Positions 9,215 through 34,564 of a stretch of 64,000 bases of DNA are shown here, in pieces. The translations under genes and the position numbers were made by a program. Position 1 is the first letter of the stretch, and every line of letters starts with the position of its first letter. The stretch lies in the IMG/VR virus record IMGVR_UViG_3300045988_107471. One strand, written 5' to 3'. The DNA comes from a virus. The notes under the pieces are model-generated. The model ran no database searches. It was not told the origin of the DNA and saw only the letters and a list, made by a program, of their open reading frames with translations.

Positions 9215-9757
9215 GTGACGGACGCCACAGGAGACAGGTGGGTAAAGTGCGAAGAGCTCCGGTTCAGGGGAGACGGGGCCTGCTTTGCGTGGCGTAAGGC
9301 TACAGTAGATGAAATTGTTGAACATTTTAAAAAACAGATAATTATGGGATATATATGTACAAGATGTGGTGGAACAAATGTTGCCTGTGAAGCTATAGTA
9401 AATCCGAATACCGGAAAAATAATAGATTATTTTGATGGATCTTTCATGCATGCTATTTGCGCGGATTGTGAAAACGAGGTGATAATATCCGACATTGAAG
9501 AAGTCAAACATGAAATTGATTTAAGGTTTCATGAATTTATAGAAAGAACAAGGAAGGAGCCTGAATACGTAGAATGTCAGATTGCATGGAAAGAGACAGG
9601 AGATGATGAAAGAGTGACAATAAAACTATCGCTGAGTATCAATGATGATGACAATGATAATGTTTTTTATTATTGCAATGGGATAGAATCGTTTAAGCAA
9701 CTTGCTGAATACGGAATGGGAGAATTTATCGTAACATTTTGTTGGAGTTTCTTTTAA
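9215..9757 (+). CDS. zinc-ribbon protein (CTRCGG...CADCEN); true start uncertain (GTG 9215 or ATG 9344)
   Basis: Track ORF starts at GTG. The first 130 nt is a GC-rich block that may be non-coding. Confidence 0.5.
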   Translation: MTDATGDRWVKCEELRFRGDGACFAWRKATVDEIVEHFKKQIIMGYICTRCGGTNVACEAIVNPNTGKIIDYFDGSFMHAICADCENEVIISDIEEVKHEIDLRFHEFIERTRKEPEYVECQIAWKETGDDERVTIKLSLSINDDDNDNVFYYCNGIESFKQLAEYGMGEFIVTFCWSFF

Positions 9758-27745: not shown

Positions 27746-28847
27746 GATAGATATAAGAAGGATATTCAAGACCTCTAAACAGGTTATGGAGGAGGCGTAT
27801 GAGAATATCTTGAAATACAGGCGGGGAGAGCTTATCCCCGCTAAAACCGGATACGATTATATTGATGAGGCTTTGCTTGGAGGTATTTTCCCTCAGCATG
27901 CTATTGCCATAGGAGCTCGGCCATCTGTGGGTAAATCGTATGTGGCCCAAAAGATATTGGAAAATGTGATGAATCCGATGATCAACCCGCAAGCAGAAGA
28001 TTATTTTCTTGTCAATTGCGAGTTCGAAATGAATCCTCAAGATCTTCTTCTTCGCAGAATGAGCCAGGATATGAAAAAACGGGCTCCTGAAATATTAAGA
28101 AGGCAAGATTCTAATACAGTAGAAGAGATGAGGATGTTTGAAATCCTTCAAGGTGAAATTAGAAATAATATAATATACATCGATGCTCCGTGTACGGTAA
28201 AAGAGTTTGAGGCGGCTGTGTATCATATAGCTACCAAACACAAAGACAAACGTCTTATAATATTTAAAGTCGATCATATTGCTTTGATAAAAAGAATGGG
28301 ATTAGATCCTAAGTCGGCTATAGATGATTTGGTGGCGGTTATGAACGAGGCTAAATTAGTATATAAAAACATATTTTTCCTCATCATATCCCAATTCAAC
28401 AGAGAGATAGAAGGAAGGATAAAAAGCCCTCAAGAGCAGCCTCCCCGTCTTTCTGACTTTTATCAGTCTGATACGCTGGGGCAACTATGTACGTTAATGA
28501 TAGGTTTGCATAATCCTCGCAGATACGGGCTGGACAAGTATATGATATTTGGGAAAGACTGGTATCAGACTCTTGACCGGTTTAAAACTGAAAACAAAAC
28601 ATCATTCAGGACAGCCGGACTGGTGTTTCATCATATACTGAAGGTAAGGCAAGTTAGTATGGAAGAGCTTACTAATACAATCCACCCAGAGATCCTGCCG
28701 GGGCATGGATGGATGTACGGGGAGGGAGGGACGAAGTTCGTGAACCCCAACCAGCCGCCGACGCCGCCCAAGCTCTATACTGTGGAAGACGTTACGAACA
28801 ATCAAGATCAAGAACAAGAGGTAAAGGAAGAACAGTCAGTATATTAA
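27714..28847 (+). CDS. DnaB-like replicative helicase (RecA-like core; 377 aa)
   Basis: GYDYIDEALLGGIFPQHAIAIGARPSVGKSYVAQKI matches the DnaB H1/Walker A block; downstream DHIALI (Walker B-like). Confidence 0.7.
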   Translation: MTKMHEEIANKIDIRRIFKTSKQVMEEAYENILKYRRGELIPAKTGYDYIDEALLGGIFPQHAIAIGARPSVGKSYVAQKILENVMNPMINPQAEDYFLVNCEFEMNPQDLLLRRMSQDMKKRAPEILRRQDSNTVEEMRMFEILQGEIRNNIIYIDAPCTVKEFEAAVYHIATKHKDKRLIIFKVDHIALIKRMGLDPKSAIDDLVAVMNEAKLVYKNIFFLIISQFNREIEGRIKSPQEQPPRLSDFYQSDTLGQLCTLMIGLHNPRRYGLDKYMIFGKDWYQTLDRFKTENKTSFRTAGLVFHHILKVRQVSMEELTNTIHPEILPGHGWMYGEGGTKFVNPNQPPTPPKLYTVEDVTNNQDQEQEVKEEQSVY

Positions 28848-28861
28848 AAAAAAAGAAACGT

Positions 28862-29464
28862 ATGAGACTTACCGTAGAAGAAAACGAATACCTGATAAGT
28901 AAGTTCCTTTTGGTTCTTACTGAGTTCGCAGGGGATGAAAGAGAGATGTTTTTAATCAACTCCATACATGATAAAGCAGTAGCGGATATGAATTATCGTC
29001 TTCCGTCTTTAATAAGCAGAGAACGCAAAAGACGAGTCATTGAGCTTCTTAAAGAAGGGACCAGAATAATCAAAGACTTTTCTGGTTATGCAGGTGATAT
29101 GGGTATGATTAACGAATACGATCGTCTAAAGAAAGAAATAGGTACCGTCCAAGACCAGCTTGGTGACGTAGAAGGTCAACTTCGGGCAGCAGGAGAAGTT
29201 ATTAAAAAAGAACTTGATATGATTGCTGACCGGATCAAAGAAGACCTTCTCGACCGAGAGCTGGCTAAAAGTAATGCCGAGGCTGAAAGAAAAGCCAAAG
29301 TGGATCCGAGATACGAAGTAGCTTTAGGTGATTACAAGGAGATGCTGGAAGTGATTTTTACAACCAGAAACAAGTATTCTACGGTAGATTCTGTACATGA
29401 CGATCTTCGACAGTCGGTATCTACCGGTAGAAATTCGATTATCAAAGAAGGGTACAACAGTTAA
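28862..29464 (+). CDS. hypothetical coiled-coil protein (about 200 aa)
   Basis: ATG MRLTVEEN after the helicase stop; the track ORF 28709.. is an out-of-frame extension into the helicase gene. Confidence 0.55.
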   Translation: MRLTVEENEYLISKFLLVLTEFAGDEREMFLINSIHDKAVADMNYRLPSLISRERKRRVIELLKEGTRIIKDFSGYAGDMGMINEYDRLKKEIGTVQDQLGDVEGQLRAAGEVIKKELDMIADRIKEDLLDRELAKSNAEAERKAKVDPRYEVALGDYKEMLEVIFTTRNKYSTVDSVHDDLRQSVSTGRNSIIKEGYNS

Positions 29465-29479
29465 AAACAAGGAGGAAAT

Positions 29480-29686
29480 ATGGAAAAGAAGGAATTTAAA
29501 GTAGGAGAAGTGTTTGATGCCGGACTTGTGAGATTAAAATGTGTGGAACCTACGGCGCCAAATGCAGGATGTGAAGGATGTATATTCAATTACTTTACAT
29601 GCGGGGCAGTGGATGTGATTGCAGGTCCGTGTAGTCACGCGGAGAGGGAGGATAATAGAGATGTTATTTTCATTAAAGCTGATTAG
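29480..29686 (+). CDS. small Cys-rich protein (68 aa)
   Basis: ATG with SD CAAGGAGGAAAT. Confidence 0.5.
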   Translation: MEKKEFKVGEVFDAGLVRLKCVEPTAPNAGCEGCIFNYFTCGAVDVIAGPCSHAEREDNRDVIFIKAD

Positions 29687-29688
29687 GA

Positions 29689-30402
29689 ATGTACATCAAT
29701 TTCAGACAACTTACAGCATCAGACATGACTCCTAATGATCTCGCTAATCTTCTTGCCATAAGACAGAAGGATGCGGTTATGATCGAAGCCATACCGGAAG
29801 AAGACGCTGGAAGATATATAGAGCTTGGCCTGGTTGAGAAATTAAAATCAGGCGTGATGAGATTAACCAACAAAGGAACGTCTTTTGTGAATTATATAGA
29901 GACACCGGAAATGACGGACGAGGTTCTGGAAACGTTGAAGATTATGATAGGAATGTACGAATCATATTCAAAAGACATAGGTGTCAGCAGAAAAGAAGCG
30001 GAATCCAGATTGTGTTGGTTTATGGGTAATACTTCATTTAAGAAAGAGGTCATACTTCAAGTAACGGAATCTTATATAGCAGAGTCAGGAGATTACACAA
30101 TGAGCTTATGTAACTTCATATGGAAACCGCCTTCTCAGGCTTTTTCAGTCCATATGAACCTTAAAAACTCAAAGCTCTTTGACCTAATAGCTGAAAAATT
30201 TAAGATCGCTACCGAGCCTTATTTGGAGCCTAAGAAGAATAAGGAAATGGATTGGTTGTTTGCCGTATCTAAATTGCCTACGCCGCCGGCTAAAGGCAAT
30301 CCGGATTATTTGTTTACCGGAAGTTCGGAAACAGACAAAGAGAGGTTGAAAAACATAAAAACGTATTTATTTAACAAAATTAGAAAGCAATGGAAAAAGT
30401 AA
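29689..30402 (+). CDS. hypothetical protein (237 aa)
   Basis: ATG ORF; 3' end overlaps the ACP start. Confidence 0.6.
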   Translation: MYINFRQLTASDMTPNDLANLLAIRQKDAVMIEAIPEEDAGRYIELGLVEKLKSGVMRLTNKGTSFVNYIETPEMTDEVLETLKIMIGMYESYSKDIGVSRKEAESRLCWFMGNTSFKKEVILQVTESYIAESGDYTMSLCNFIWKPPSQAFSVHMNLKNSKLFDLIAEKFKIATEPYLEPKKNKEMDWLFAVSKLPTPPAKGNPDYLFTGSSETDKERLKNIKTYLFNKIRKQWKK

Positions 30403-30641
30403 GAATTAGAAAGATAATAGAGGATATAATTATTACTCAGTTTCTTAATTCGGAAATGGATATAGTTCATGAAGAAGATGTGTCGTTTAAAGAACTTGGA
30501 TTAGATTCTATTGATCGAATTGAGCTTGATGCGATGGTGGAACAAAAATTCAATATCGTTATTATTGATTATGATACAGAATCCATCAAAGATATGACTG
30601 ATCTTGTTTACAAAATAATAACAGAAGGATATGGGAAATGA
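30390..30641 (+). CDS. acyl carrier protein (PP-binding; 83 aa)
   Basis: FKELGLDSIDRIELDAMVEQKFNIVI aligns with the AcpP core [20 protein letters not shown] with Ser in DSI/DSL; four-helix length and spacing. Confidence 0.75.
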   Translation: MEKVRIRKIIEDIIITQFLNSEMDIVHEEDVSFKELGLDSIDRIELDAMVEQKFNIVIIDYDTESIKDMTDLVYKIITEGYGK

Positions 30642-31125
30642 TATAATTTTATGCATGGCTTTAATAGCGTCATTTGCTTTTGTTATACAGTTTTTATTGT
30701 CGATATTAGGATCTGATCTGGATACGGATATTGACATTGATAACGCTTCTGATTTAAGCATGTCTTTGTCGGACATCATATCATTCAAAGGCATAACACA
30801 TTTTATTCTTGGATATAGCTGGACTACGTACTTTTCGGGTTCCCATTTAGTAGGGATCGTAATAGGGTCGTTTTTCTTTATCGTTTTGTTTTACGTATAT
30901 AAGTTACTTCTTAAGTTAAAGCAAGAAATGGTGTACGAATGTCCGGAAGATTTAAATGGCAGAGAGGTGGAGATAGTATTTAGATCAGGGAAGAATCATT
31001 ATATGGTAAATATTTCGAAAAATGGAAGACAGGAGCAAATGAGAGTAAGATGTTTGTCTGGAAAAACTTACAAAAACGGTGACAAGGTGAATATAAAATA
31101 CGAAGAAGGAGAACTAAGTATCTAA
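30631..31125 (+). CDS. NfeD-like membrane protein (2 TM + C-terminal OB-fold; 164 aa)
   Basis: N-terminal TM helices; C-terminal GREVEIVF...G...V.IKYEEGELSI beta-barrel pattern; directly upstream of the flotillin gene as in yuaF-yuaG/yqiJ-yqiK. Confidence 0.65.
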   Translation: MGNDIILCMALIASFAFVIQFLLSILGSDLDTDIDIDNASDLSMSLSDIISFKGITHFILGYSWTTYFSGSHLVGIVIGSFFFIVLFYVYKLLLKLKQEMVYECPEDLNGREVEIVFRSGKNHYMVNISKNGRQEQMRVRCLSGKTYKNGDKVNIKYEEGELSI

Positions 31126-31157
31126 TTTTTTTTATCAACAATTAAATTTTAAAAGTT

Positions 31158-32858
31158 ATGACAACAATCATGTACGTGTCAGCTATCTTAGCTGTAGTGA
31201 TTATTTTGACAATCATCGGAGTCTTATCAAGGTATCGTAGATGTAAGCCTAATCAGGTCTTGGTCGTTTATGGTAAGACAGGTGGGGAAAAGAAATCGGC
31301 GAAATTATATCATGGTGGAGCGGCATTTGTCTTGCCTATTATTCAAAGCTATGATGTTTTGTCAATGGAGCCTATGCAAATAGATTGCAAGCTTACCGGT
31401 GCTTTGTCATCTCAGAATATTAGAGTAGATGTTCCTACGACTATTACAGTAGCTATCAGTACAAATCCAGAGATCATGCAAAATGCGGCAGAAAGACTTT
31501 TGGGAATGGATACCGAATCTACTGAAAATCTTATTACGGACATCGTTTACGGTCAGATGCGTTTGATTATTGCTGAAATGACAATCGAAAAACTTAATTC
31601 TGACAGGGATGAGTTTTTGGATAAGGCAAGAAAGAACATTGATAACGAGCTTAACAAGTTAGGTCTTTACCTCCTGAACATCAACATCAGTGACATTAGA
31701 GACGAAGCCGGTTATATTATGAACCTTGGTAAGGAGGCTGAAAGTAGGGCTCTGAACGAAGCACAGGCTAATATCGAAGAACAGGAGAAGCTGGGGGCTA
31801 TTAAGATTGCTGTACAGCAGAAGGAGAAAGAAACGGCTGTGGCTAATACCAAAAAAGAACAAGAGATTCAAATTGCTTGTACTGAAAAAGAAAAGGAAAC
31901 AATAGTAGCTGAAACGAAGAAAGAAAAAGAAATAGCTTTGGCTTTAACCGATAAAGAAAAACAGATTGGTGTAGCTCAAGCAGATAGAGATAGGGCTGCG
32001 GTTATCGCAAAAACTTTAACCGACAAGGAATCGGCGATCGTAAGATCTAAGGCAGAACTTGAAGTAAATAAAGCCGAGGCTGAAAGGATGGAAGAAGTCG
32101 GAAAGAACAAGGCTGAAGCTGACAAGGAAGCAGCTATAGCAATACAAAACTCTGAAGCTCAGATTAAGAAGGCTGAGGCTGAGAAAAATGCGTCTATAGG
32201 ATACAACAATGCCCAGAAGGAGGTTGCTGTGTCAGTATCAGAATTGCAGATTATCAAAGCTCAATCAGAAAAGAAGGCCGGAGAAGAAAAAGTTAAATCG
32301 GAAGCGGCTGTAAAAACAGCAAAAGAGCTTGCAGACAAAGAAGTGGAAGAAGCTAAGGCTAAGAAAGTTCAGGCTGCGCTTAAGGCTGAAAAGATTGTGC
32401 CGGCTGAAACCCAGAAGGAAGAGGCTATCTTGCAAGCTGATGCCGAGGCCGAGAAGATCAAACGCCGGGCTGAGGCTGAGGCATCAGCACATTTGGCAAA
32501 AGCTGAGGCAGAGGCAAAAGCTATTCAGATGAAGCTGGAGGCAGAAGCCGAAGGTAAGAAAAAGTCGTTAATGGCAGAAGCCGACGGATTTAAGGCTATG
32601 GTGGAAGCAGCAGAATCCAATCCTCAGATCGCCATCCAGTACAAGATGGTTAATCAGTGGAAAGAAATTGCTGGAGAACAGGTTAAAGCATTTGAGCACA
32701 TTAATCTCGGAAATATCACGGTATTTGACGGCGGTCAGAACAGTACCGGTAATTTCCTTAACAATGTTGTCAAGACCGTCGCTCCGGCATTGGGAGTCAT
32801 TGATCAGCTTCCGATTGCAGATACTTTAAAGAAATTAAAAGGAGATGACAAAAAATAA
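31158..32858 (+). CDS. flotillin-like SPFH/band-7 protein (566 aa)
   Basis: N-terminal TM, SPFH block (NQVLVVYGK...AAFVLPIIQSYDVLSMEPMQIDC...), long EA/EAK-rich coiled-coil repeats, C-terminal flotillin tail. Confidence 0.8.
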   Translation: MTTIMYVSAILAVVIILTIIGVLSRYRRCKPNQVLVVYGKTGGEKKSAKLYHGGAAFVLPIIQSYDVLSMEPMQIDCKLTGALSSQNIRVDVPTTITVAISTNPEIMQNAAERLLGMDTESTENLITDIVYGQMRLIIAEMTIEKLNSDRDEFLDKARKNIDNELNKLGLYLLNINISDIRDEAGYIMNLGKEAESRALNEAQANIEEQEKLGAIKIAVQQKEKETAVANTKKEQEIQIACTEKEKETIVAETKKEKEIALALTDKEKQIGVAQADRDRAAVIAKTLTDKESAIVRSKAELEVNKAEAERMEEVGKNKAEADKEAAIAIQNSEAQIKKAEAEKNASIGYNNAQKEVAVSVSELQIIKAQSEKKAGEEKVKSEAAVKTAKELADKEVEEAKAKKVQAALKAEKIVPAETQKEEAILQADAEAEKIKRRAEAEASAHLAKAEAEAKAIQMKLEAEAEGKKKSLMAEADGFKAMVEAAESNPQIAIQYKMVNQWKEIAGEQVKAFEHINLGNITVFDGGQNSTGNFLNNVVKTVAPALGVIDQLPIADTLKKLKGDDKK

Positions 32859-32865
32859 ATACAAT

Positions 32866-32887
32866 GGCCCAAGGTTACACTTGGGCC
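32866..32887 (+). terminator. stable hairpin (8-bp GGCCCAAG/CTTGGGCC, 6-nt loop) 8 nt after the flotillin stop
   Basis: Perfect inverted repeat; weak U-tract. Confidence 0.4.
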
Positions 32888-33075
32888 TAATTGAAGAAAT
32901 AAAAGCAGCATTCATAGATTTCCTGCCTGCGGGAACAGTGATTTTAAGTGCTTTACTAATTACGATATTTTTAACATGGATTTTGGACAAGATTTAGAAC
33001 CAGAAGAACTGACCAAGCATTATGATCAGTGTTATGGAATTGATTTTGAAACAGAAGAAGAGGAGGATGAAGAGT

Positions 33076-33381
33076 ATGACCGATGAGGAATTTGCATTAG
33101 ATAATAAGAAAAAGGTTGTTGTAAGAAAAAGAATATCTTATTTAAACAAAGGGGATAAAGTGTGGATCGTGTCTTCCGACGGGTATCTGCTACACACGGA
33201 TGTAGTTAGAGCCGAACGCGGACGGTCTTATGTGGATATAGATGGGATTCTGTATTGGAAGCGAGGATTAGATGGCAAGCATCGTAATCGTAATAACTAC
33301 ATGCAGTTTGCCATGACACCAGAAGACGGTAAGAAGTATGTCGTATATTACCCGGAAGGATTTAAAGACAATGACTTATGA
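33076..33381 (+). CDS. hypothetical protein (about 101 aa)
   Basis: ATG MTDEEFALDNKK with SD GAGGAGGATGAAGAGT; the track ORF starts earlier at 33022. Confidence 0.5.
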   Translation: MTDEEFALDNKKKVVVRKRISYLNKGDKVWIVSSDGYLLHTDVVRAERGRSYVDIDGILYWKRGLDGKHRNRNNYMQFAMTPEDGKKYVVYYPEGFKDNDL

Positions 33382-34397
33382 TGGTCCCGGAAACGCATTT
33401 GCTATATAAGGAGTTTAATGGCGTGAAACGTCTTGCCATATCTTATTCCCAGATAGATACGTTTCTTACTTGTCCAATGAAATGGTATAAGACTTACGTG
33501 GAGGGCAAAAGGTCTACGGAAAAACAAGAAGCTACGTCTTATGGTACGGTTATTCATAAGACACTGGAATACTTCTTCAAGAACGGAAGACAGCCTTCTG
33601 GCAAAGACCTGGGGGAAGCTATAAGTTACTATGCTTACCAAGAAGACATACCTTGGCAATCACCGGAAAATATGATGATAGCCATGAAGCAATCTGGAGA
33701 GCTTCTTGCTTGGATTGTGGATCTGTTCAAAAAAGACGGCAATAGGTTTATGATAGCTGATAGTGATCTTAATCCCTGCGAGAAACTTATCAGACACGGC
33801 GCTATAGTTGGAGTCGAAGAAGATTTTGTGCTGCCGTACCGTCTTCCTAAGCCTGTTAACATAAATGGAGTAATTCATACTCATGTGTACATAGTAGGAT
33901 CGGTAGACCTTCATCTGGCTATAAAAAGCAAGAACGTAGTTCACCATTATGTCATAGATTGGAAATCAGGTAATAAGGTTTTTGATTCTAAGAAGTTGGA
34001 AACGAATTTACAGCATCCTATATATTCGTTTTACATCTATAGAAAATATGGTGGAGTTCTGCCAGATATGAACATCTATTTCTTTACCAGAACCAGGCAG
34101 TACCAAAAGGTTAAAGTAGATGAAGAACGTAAAACAAAATCTATAGAAATGCTAAATGACACTTTATCTAAAATGTATGATTTTGAAGATAATAGTGTAA
34201 AATCATTTCAAGCGTACATCCAGGGAGCAGAAGGAGCCAGGTATAGCAAGCGGCGTGCCACCCTAAGCCAGCCTGTTTCGCAAAACAAGCTACCCTGCCC
34301 GTCAGCACTGTGTTATTATTGTGACTTTGGATTACATAACAAAAACGAATGCCCTTTCTCTTCGAATTGGGATCCGTCTAAAAAGATAAAACGATGA
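33378..34397 (+). CDS. Cas4/RecB-like PD-(D/E)xK exonuclease with Fe-S cluster cysteines (339 aa)
   Basis: N-terminal Cys (CPMKWYK) plus C-terminal C-x5-C-x2-C...C (CPSALCYYC...ECPF); core DLHLAIKSK...VIDWKSG (D..K / D-x-K). Confidence 0.65.
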   Translation: MMVPETHLLYKEFNGVKRLAISYSQIDTFLTCPMKWYKTYVEGKRSTEKQEATSYGTVIHKTLEYFFKNGRQPSGKDLGEAISYYAYQEDIPWQSPENMMIAMKQSGELLAWIVDLFKKDGNRFMIADSDLNPCEKLIRHGAIVGVEEDFVLPYRLPKPVNINGVIHTHVYIVGSVDLHLAIKSKNVVHHYVIDWKSGNKVFDSKKLETNLQHPIYSFYIYRKYGGVLPDMNIYFFTRTRQYQKVKVDEERKTKSIEMLNDTLSKMYDFEDNSVKSFQAYIQGAEGARYSKRRATLSQPVSQNKLPCPSALCYYCDFGLHNKNECPFSSNWDPSKKIKR

Positions 34398-34564
34398 AAT
34401 ACGATGATGTTCAAAAGTTAAGAACAAAATACCGGCAAGATCCGGAAGTTATAAACTTGACATACATGAGAGACGTTGCTGTACGATGCGGGAATTTCAA
34501 GAAAGCGTTTGAGCTTCAGGAGAAGCTGGAGGATATATGGTTCAACTATTTAAAAGGAGTGTAA
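34394..34564 (+). CDS. small protein (56 aa, MKYDDVQKLRTKYRQDPEV...)
   Basis: ATGA overlap with the upstream stop; ends TAATG overlapping the next start; below the ORF-track cutoff. Confidence 0.35.
   Translation: MKYDDVQKLRTKYRQDPEVINLTYMRDVAVRCGNFKKAFELQEKLEDIWFNYLKGV

Follow-up and report, generated by a model that had tools for sequence, protein, structure and literature searches.

The 64,000-nucleotide IMG/VR virus record IMGVR_UViG_3300045988_107471, called the window in the following, is from an epsilon crAss-like phage of gut Bacteroidales that is close to crAssE-Sib (GenBank OR575929.1). Among its replication genes it carries a gene for an acyl carrier protein (ACP), directly followed by genes for a short NfeD-like membrane protein and for a flotillin of the SPFH type. 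According to our analysis, the latter two are probably a host-derived pair that was captured once, has been kept by selection and acts as a phage SPFH scaffold or holdase, with the ACP being independent of it. The three genes lie on the plus strand at the positions given by an initial annotation of the sequence (Table 1), which had read them as one phage-borne membrane module.

The product of the third gene, with 566 amino acids (aa), matches PF01145 (Band_7; 91.7 bits, E-value 7.6e-26) and PF15975 (Flot; 39.1 bits, 9.4e-10), both above the Pfam cut-offs, and its closest solved relatives are human flotillin-2 and flotillin-1 (8.6e-23). One hydrophobic segment at the N-terminus, the anchor (residues 1-28), is followed by an SPFH/Band_7 domain (approximately 29-211), a coiled coil (approximately 212-449) and a flotillin C-terminal domain (450-559). 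The coiled-coil region consists of 21% Ala, 17% Glu and 17% Lys, reaches 61% together with Gln and contains a single Pro, so that the anchor, the SPFH domain and the long EA-rich coiled coil proposed initially are all found. The NCBIfam equivalog model for FloT (NF058507) was missed, with 146 bits at a cut-off of 700, and by these scores the protein is a flotillin but not a FloT equivalog.

The middle protein was recognized less directly. It has two strongly hydrophobic segments (residues 1-30 and 67-96), and its C-terminus is predicted to form a five-stranded OB-fold barrel that is most like solved NfeD domains in a fold search. The resulting layout is NfeD-like, with a first transmembrane (TM) helix at approximately 1-30, an acidic loop at 30-48, helices at 52-101 (TM 67-96) and the barrel at 112-163. 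Neither the full protein nor its C-terminal 65 aa gave a direct match to PF01957 even at E<=10, and scans against Pfam, NCBIfam, PHROG and PADLOC returned nothing usable. A profile built from a few close relatives, in turn, recruited 433 proteins from a representative library. Of 85 full-length family members, three matched PF01957 (best 6e-5), and the profile of these 85 had Bacillus subtilis YuaF (2k14) as its top match in the PDB, with an E-value of 0.0049 and spanning the OB domain. A viral relative in BFVD with 34% identity is named 'NfeD-like C-terminal domain-containing protein'. Because these profile and fold lines agree with a position directly 5' of an SPFH gene, we accept the middle gene as a probable remote, short NfeD on fold and profile evidence; the two TM segments and the barrel of the initial annotation stood, and the family match came through relatives rather than directly.

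An acidic stretch of the NfeD-like protein, DLDTDIDID (DxDxDxD) within residues 30-48 (window 30718-30774), follows the first TM helix and is strongly conserved. It is common to the phage and Bacteroidales NfeD-like family, with the consensus GDxDxDxDxDG, and looks like a cation-binding loop. We know of no description of such a loop for NfeD proteins of the YuaF type.

In order to trace the origin of the pair, the flotillin was compared with chromosomal flotillins of 80 Bacteroidales species, which include Bacteroides, Parabacteroides, Phocaeicola and genera of the Prevotella group. Identity over the full length was 62-67% (tblastn), and 66-70% in an alignment with 18 of these bacterial flotillins (MAFFT). 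A homolog of the phage NfeD is present in 79 of the 80 loci, at 29-42% identity. The Bacteroidales operon has the same two genes in the same order and with the same architecture (a protein of approximately 165 aa with TM and OB parts, and a flotillin of approximately 550 aa), separated by a likewise short spacer, which measures 41-56 nucleotides (nt) in the twelve loci listed and 32 nt in the window. Housekeeping genes surround the operon in both bacterial contigs examined, and homologs of the ACP, of the 237-aa gene upstream of it or of the small open reading frame (ORF) downstream of the flotillin were found at none of the 80 loci. What sets the phage copy apart is its location in a replication block, the ACP in front and a long separate branch. 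These comparisons show that the pair derives from the core chromosomal NfeD-flotillin operon of Bacteroidales.

The capture appears to be old. Among the sampled bacteria, most flotillins share 82-99% identity (the outlier, Phocaeicola vulgatus, is at 70-73%), whereas the flotillins of two phage lineages cluster on their own long branch apart from the bacterial ones. This points to a single old acquisition by an ancestor of at least two phage lineages, followed by divergence. The divergence is uneven along the protein: identity to the flotillin of Bacteroides thetaiotaomicron falls from 80% in the SPFH domain and 76% in the Flot domain to 57% in the coiled coil and 54% in the anchor, and phage and host NfeD share approximately 40%. 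The initial annotation had named a host-derived insertion flanked by insertion sequence (IS) ends as the alternative to a conserved phage module. The host derivation was borne out for the pair, but the region 28500-34500 has neither IS ends nor meaningful flanking repeats, only short repeats at chance level, no transposase lies within the block, and the pair is conserved under purifying selection in two lineages.

Genes of this set were found at 166 IMG/VR loci, on contigs of up to 155 kb. All counts of related viral loci given here refer to the best 80 of these 166, which belong to the window's own lineage, are at least 96% identical and carry the full set in 80 of 80 cases. A second lineage, known from ENA and Logan contigs of up to 150 kb, shares the gene order (DnaB, a 200-aa gene, the 237-aa gene, ACP, NfeD, flotillin, an ORF of approximately 52 aa, small ORFs and the exonuclease); an IMG/VR search with its flotillin returned the window's own lineage only. 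Synonymous sites have reached saturation between the two lineages. With 82% amino acid identity, the flotillin is conserved best among the proteins of the block, followed by DnaB, exonuclease and helicase with 78%, NfeD with 64%, ACP with 39% and the small ORF with 34%. Within the window lineage, pooled ratios of nonsynonymous to synonymous substitution (dN/dS) are 0.038 for the flotillin, 0.060 for NfeD, 0.046 for DnaB, 0.052 for the exonuclease, 0.28 for the ACP and 0.25 for the small ORF. Purifying selection on the pair is as strong as on the helicase and exonuclease of the phage. Together with the lack of flanking repeats, conservation and selection indicate that the pair, host-derived as it is, has been domesticated for a long time and serves a function in the phage.

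It is therefore scarcely credible that the pair is a neutral passenger, that is, recently acquired host DNA without a role in the phage. Its host derivation, the varying cargo among relatives at this site and the deletions in some variants would fit such a passenger. An identity of only 66-70% to any sampled host speaks against a recent acquisition, though, and the selection data exclude neutrality: dN/dS of 0.04-0.06 equals that of essential replication genes, both genes persist in two lineages between which synonymous sites have become saturated, and the ORFs are intact in 75 of 79 loci for the flotillin and in 80 of 80 for NfeD.

The flotillin was also found in thousands of metagenome sequences, in which variants of approximately 408-659 aa arise from in-frame deletions and duplications in the EA-rich coiled coil. 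In a few contigs the N-terminus of NfeD is fused to the C-terminus of the flotillin and most of the latter is deleted. Minority variants of this kind (P0146, P0148, P0150, P0027 and P0032, with in-frame deletions of the coiled coil or fusions of NfeD to the flotillin C-terminus) count against the role in infection that we favour below; they may mean that the flotillin is dispensable in some genomes, or may be assembly artefacts in a repetitive region rather than real polymorphism.

The first of the three genes encodes a small acidic protein (20 Asp and Glu, 10 Lys and Arg) that matches PF00550 in Pfam with 26.7 bits (cut-off 20.8, E-value 7e-6) and phrog_5934, 'acyl carrier protein', with 33 bits (8.8e-8). 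A total of 62 solved ACP chains match it at E<=0.01. Ser40, in the motif LGLDSID, aligns to the DSL serine of the Plasmodium ACP 3gzl (GADSLD in 3gzl and 2fq0), and hence takes the position of the phosphopantetheine attachment site at the start of helix II in the D-S-L/I motif of solved ACPs, as the initial annotation had proposed. No NCBIfam ACP equivalog cut-off was reached, the best scores being 29.4 and 29.0 bits against 71 and 70.45 (29.0 against 70.45 for TIGR00517). The protein is, judged by these matches, a divergent carrier protein and not an AcpP ortholog. It evolves fast within and between the lineages, as the above values show. Nevertheless, 80 of 80 related viral loci keep the Asp-Ser motif, followed in one of them by an in-frame stop at a distance of three codons, and the attachment Ser is also present in the second flotillin-bearing lineage. 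The phage ACPs of PHROG 5934 are likewise small, acidic PP-binding proteins with a DS(I/L)D motif and are classed as auxiliary genes; the window ACP is a weak member of this group. Among 50,697 deposited phage genomes, a related ACP was found in none besides crAssE-Sib.

A search for a modifying enzyme or acyltransferase elsewhere in the genome, suggested by the initial annotation, gave nothing. In the 151-kb relative OR575929, no phosphopantetheinyl transferase (PPTase), acyltransferase, acyl-ACP synthetase or Fab gene is annotated. A phmmer scan of the whole genome with AcpS and Sfp queries likewise yielded no PPTase, though its sensitivity is low and it is no proof of absence. Since no phage PPTase was found, loading of the window ACP with 4'-phosphopantetheine, if it is modified at all, would have to be carried out by a host PPTase. 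The gene upstream of the ACP, which has the size of an Sfp-type PPTase, was considered for this role and ruled out: its 237-aa product has no family match and no ACPS match, and shows a MarR-like winged-helix DNA-binding fold at the N-terminus (AlphaFold2 model, pLDDT 87) and a helical C-terminal half. It is a conserved backbone gene in epsilon crAss-like phages, always encoded behind the DnaB-type helicase block.

Inspection of the neighbourhoods of 237-aa-gene homologs (36-97% identity) shows that what follows this gene differs among related phages. In L257 (237-aa gene 63% identical), the backbone gene of approximately 100 aa (homolog of 33022-33381) and the exonuclease come next, without ACP and flotillin. 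In L259 (44%), ACP and flotillin are missing as well, and a 101-aa ORF without detectable similarity to the backbone gene and a 51-aa ORF precede the exonuclease. L254 (61%) and L258 (58%) have an 87-aa PP-binding protein, a DNA methylase, the backbone gene, a small ORF and two radical-SAM genes before the exonuclease. In L255 (56%), an unrelated 105-aa ORF and a 176-aa ORF with distant relationship to the backbone gene (30-33%) are found in front of the exonuclease. Homologs of the 119-aa backbone gene of the window (43-59%) thus lie just before the exonuclease in L257 and after the insert of ACP and methylase in L254. By lineage, the slot is nearly empty, or holds ACP with NfeD-flotillin, ACP (Asp) with a methylase and two radical-SAM genes, or unrelated small ORFs. 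In epsilon crAss-like phages, the interval that runs from the winged-helix gene to the PD-(D/E)XK exonuclease (30390-33381; L169, L254-L259) is a hot spot for cargo.

The PP-binding protein of L254 and L258 (L254:6675-6938, L258:5675-5938) scores 33.9 bits against PF00550 and is 31-37% identical to the window ACP (E-values 7e-8 to 2e-15). Its attachment Ser is replaced by Asp (LGFDDLD, MGFDDLD). With the ACP fold not modifiable, the sequence suggests that the protein has a role other than that of a carrier in these phages. As this homologous ACP occupies the same position without NfeD-flotillin, the ACP is an occupant of the slot that is independent of the pair and older than it; NfeD and flotillin, which always occur together in the 80 IMG/VR loci and the second lineage, are a separate cargo of two genes. 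The idea of one three-gene module did not survive this comparison, given sister phages with the ACP alone (Asp) and others with neither. The ACP is linked to the flotillin pair only by its adjacent position and by translational coupling. Packing is tight in this part of the window, where the ACP gene overlaps the 237-aa gene by 13 nt at its start and the NfeD gene by 11 nt at its stop.

We considered a lipid module of all three genes, in which the holo-ACP would supply acyl chains and the phage would build or remodel a lipid microdomain scaffolded by the flotillin, and regard it as improbable. The order ACP-NfeD-flotillin and the overlapping stop and start are kept in both flotillin-bearing lineages, and the attachment Ser is present there throughout, but replaced by Asp in the ACP-like proteins that lack a neighbouring flotillin (two lineages against two). 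Against it stand the homologous ACP at the same position without the pair in L254 and L258, the bacterial source operon, which has no ACP, and the lack of PPTase, acyltransferase, acyl-ACP synthetase or Fab genes in the annotation of the 151-kb relative, with the crude AcpS/Sfp scan being empty too. In addition, the coupled upstream gene encodes a winged helix-turn-helix protein, and the dN/dS of the ACP (0.28) contrasts with 0.04-0.06 for NfeD and flotillin. Two points nonetheless weigh against a full independence of the ACP and leave room for a functional link to the pair: the overlap between ACP stop and NfeD start is conserved, and it is only in the lineages with a flotillin that the attachment Ser is retained.

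We posit, by analogy with bacterial systems, that in infected cells the pair most likely serves as an auxiliary scaffold at the membrane or as a holdase. In Staphylococcus aureus, the OB domain of NfeD binds the coiled coil of the flotillin FloA and stabilizes its oligomers, and the FloA-NfeD complex holds unfolded membrane proteins without ATP (PMC11222466). On capture, the pair landed in the replication-block slot, between the winged-helix gene (with the ACP) and the pre-exonuclease gene of approximately 100 aa, and it would be transcribed together with the replication genes. The N-terminal anchor of the flotillin would insert into the host inner membrane, and the EA-rich coiled coil would oligomerize on its cytoplasmic face. 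The OB-fold of the phage NfeD would be cytoplasmic as well and might bind the flotillin coiled coil as in the S. aureus complex. Lys-rich stretches follow the second TM helix of NfeD and the anchor of the flotillin; by the positive-inside rule, we infer that both soluble domains are cytoplasmic and that the acidic loop of NfeD faces outward. As an auxiliary module of 'host maintenance', the scaffold or holdase specified by the phage may stabilize or organize membrane proteins and the integrity of the membrane.

The uneven divergence from the host proteins may say something on specificity. As NfeD (approximately 40% identity) and the coiled coil (57%) are more diverged than the SPFH domain (80%), the phage pair may, weakly, be orthogonal to that of the host and self-contained. 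Coiled coils are generally fast-evolving, which makes the argument for an orthogonal pair a weak one. A further-reaching version would be that an NfeD-flotillin cage of the phage's own making forms in the inner membrane of Bacteroides and is orthogonal to that of the host, that this cage, a membrane platform specific to the virus, is needed for productive or persistent (carrier-state) infection, for example by anchoring replication or assembly or by suppressing cell death triggered by membrane stress, and that the Ser-retaining ACP cooperates with it. We consider this unlikely; if true, it would be the first case of a virus that uses a lipid-raft scaffold of prokaryotes, and would provide a natural means of studying the function of bacterial flotillins.

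It is also conceivable, though rather unlikely, that the phage pair interferes with its host counterpart, by co-assembling with or displacing the host flotillin complex and thereby disabling membrane-stress or defence signalling or blocking superinfection. The operon is already present in nearly every sampled Bacteroidales genome, so that an extra copy would not be needed just to supply its function. An SPFH domain 80% identical to the host's would be close enough for mixed oligomers, and hetero-oligomers of SPFH proteins are known, e.g., flotillin-1/2 in 9bq2. On the other hand, neither ACP nor NfeD nor flotillin matched a PADLOC defence model (E<=0.1), and the retention of an own NfeD along with a divergent coiled coil points to a self-contained pair. 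The scaffold or holdase described above remains our preferred explanation.

A control of host proteolysis appears quite improbable. Here the pair would act like HflK/HflC and modulate a membrane protease of the host such as FtsH, in order to stabilize a phage regulator or to tune a carrier or temperate lifestyle. HflK/HflC gate FtsH and thus set the lysis-lysogeny choice of phage lambda, whose CII turnover is FtsH-dependent; it is this relationship between SPFH proteins and FtsH that lends the idea some appeal. Phages of the crAssE-Sib type furthermore have genes for a repressor and antirepressors, and a temperate lifestyle is suspected for them (PMC11054128). The SPFH protein of the window is of the flotillin and not of the HflK/C type, however, no protease partner is encoded nearby, and the reading would be pure analogy.

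Among known systems, B. subtilis YuaF-FloT (YuaG), Escherichia coli YqiJ-YqiK and S. aureus NfeD-FloA are very remote in sequence, and the acidic loop (DxDxDxD) located between the TM helices characterizes the Bacteroidales and phage family. Within deposited phages, 11 of 50,697 records match the flotillin, and crAssE-Sib alone does so with at least 60% identity, in agreement with the initial view that such a pair is unusual in a phage. The cultured Vibrio phage KIT04 (Demerecviridae) has a flotillin that is 29.7% identical over the SPFH half. It has no annotated NfeD upstream, the preceding gene being an 82-aa hypothetical protein known by annotation only, and as both phage and host are unrelated, this flotillin was acquired independently. 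MT836799.1 (L253, 'UNVERIFIED: Bacteriophage sp.') was considered as a second phage occurrence of NfeD and rejected as a probable bacterial contig in virome data, since a MurA-like 440-aa ORF (read from the translation) and an acetyltransferase-like ORF lie beside its NfeD-like gene.

In OR575929.1 the same three genes are labelled 'acyl carrier protein', 'transmembrane protein' and 'flotillin family protein'. In the crAssE-Sib paper, the ACP and flotillin labels appear in Table S1 only and are absent from the text, and the middle gene is 'hypothetical' in that table (Babkin et al., Viruses 2024, PMC11054128). In the literature searched, no relevant paper was found on flotillin in crAss-like phages or on a phage-encoded NfeD or NfeD-flotillin pair. 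With the labels for ACP and flotillin already public, the new points are that the middle gene is probably an NfeD, that the pair comes from the host and is under selection, and that the ACP is uncoupled from it. The record is to be corrected in that the middle gene of crAssE-Sib-type phages is a putative NfeD, the pair is host-derived and the ACP is not to be read as part of a lipid module. In a very abundant phage lineage of the human gut, a private copy of the pair is held under selection that equals in strength the selection on the replication enzymes, which implies that the scaffold brings a measurable benefit when Bacteroidales are infected. The function of bacterial flotillins and their NfeD partners is still debated, and a compact pair that has diverged from that of its host is a candidate probe of flotillin function and specificity in Bacteroides.

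The perfect 8-bp hairpin that had been reported after the last stop is present as GGCCCAAG-GTTACA-CTTGGGCC, with a folding free energy of -17.4 kcal/mol and a z-score of -3.6; none of 200 shuffled sequences folds as well. No T-run or U-tract follows it 3' on the plus strand, a terminator scan lists it as a minus-strand candidate only, and Rfam gave no match. The second lineage keeps the hairpin at the same place (L169 at approximately 9714-9735) with one compensatory pair, A-T to G-C (GGCCCAGG/CCTGGGCC). As this pairing is kept while the overlapping ORF is only 34% identical, the constraint looks structural, at the level of RNA or DNA, rather than coding. The hairpin is not a canonical terminator and could be a U-less terminator (of a Bacteroidales type), a processing site or a 3' stabilizer. 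Inheritance of a terminator from the bacterial operon was considered and rejected: the bacterial operons examined have varied 3' ends, and several of the bacterial genes examined end in unrelated long hairpins with T-runs, in contrast to the short GC hairpin of the phage.

The ORF of 50 aa that encloses the hairpin is 'hypothetical' in OR575929 and has a 52-aa counterpart in the second lineage. In 27 of 80 related loci it is shortened to 34 aa or less and its TM helix is lost. It is probably dispensable or no real gene, and doubtful as a fourth member of the module.

Table 1. Positions of the three genes and of adjoining features in the window.
Feature	Position	Strand	Remark
237-aa backbone gene	29689-30402	+	left edge of variable slot; outside membrane pair
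ACP gene, 83 aa	30390-30641	+	divergent, AcpP-like by sequence
Short NfeD-like membrane protein, 164 aa	30631-31125	+	
Flotillin, 566 aa	31158-32858	+	
Doubtful 50-aa ORF, one C-terminal TM helix	32845-32997	+	overlaps flotillin stop, encloses hairpin
8-bp GC-rich hairpin	32866-32887	no strand	8 nt past flotillin stop
119-aa backbone gene	33022-33381	+	right edge of variable slot

Replication genes flank the three genes: a DnaB-type helicase gene lies upstream, genes for a PD-(D/E)XK exonuclease and a DEAD/ResIII helicase lie downstream, and a primase/helicase is also among the neighbours. Over this region, the window is 96% identical to crAssE-Sib on the nucleotide level, a 151-kb epsilon crAss-like phage of the human gut for which its authors proposed the genus Epsilonunovirus (PMC11054128). 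The assignment to the replication region of a phage, made initially from the sequence, thus agrees with this relative, with the 166 IMG/VR loci and with the helicase and exonuclease neighbours. The annotation of the whole 151-kb genome of OR575929 includes ring and muzzle proteins of the crAss type. As the first 25 kb of the window are covered by OR575929 to 70% at 91% identity, the window represents a strain or species distinct from crAssE-Sib.

Rfam and tRNA scans of the window were empty. At approximately 42000, both GC skew and coding strand flip and the cumulative skew has its maximum (near 42 kb), which agrees with the point in crAssE-Sib at which a leftward block of replication or early genes gives way to structural genes of opposite orientation. 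TnpB genes are present elsewhere in relatives. In the second lineage, a nicotinamide phosphoribosyltransferase (NAMPT/NAPRTase) gene is located a few kb downstream, in some cases with an adjoining TnpB/IS605-OrfB gene (L169:16233-17707, L170:14880-17342, L169:15180-16034).

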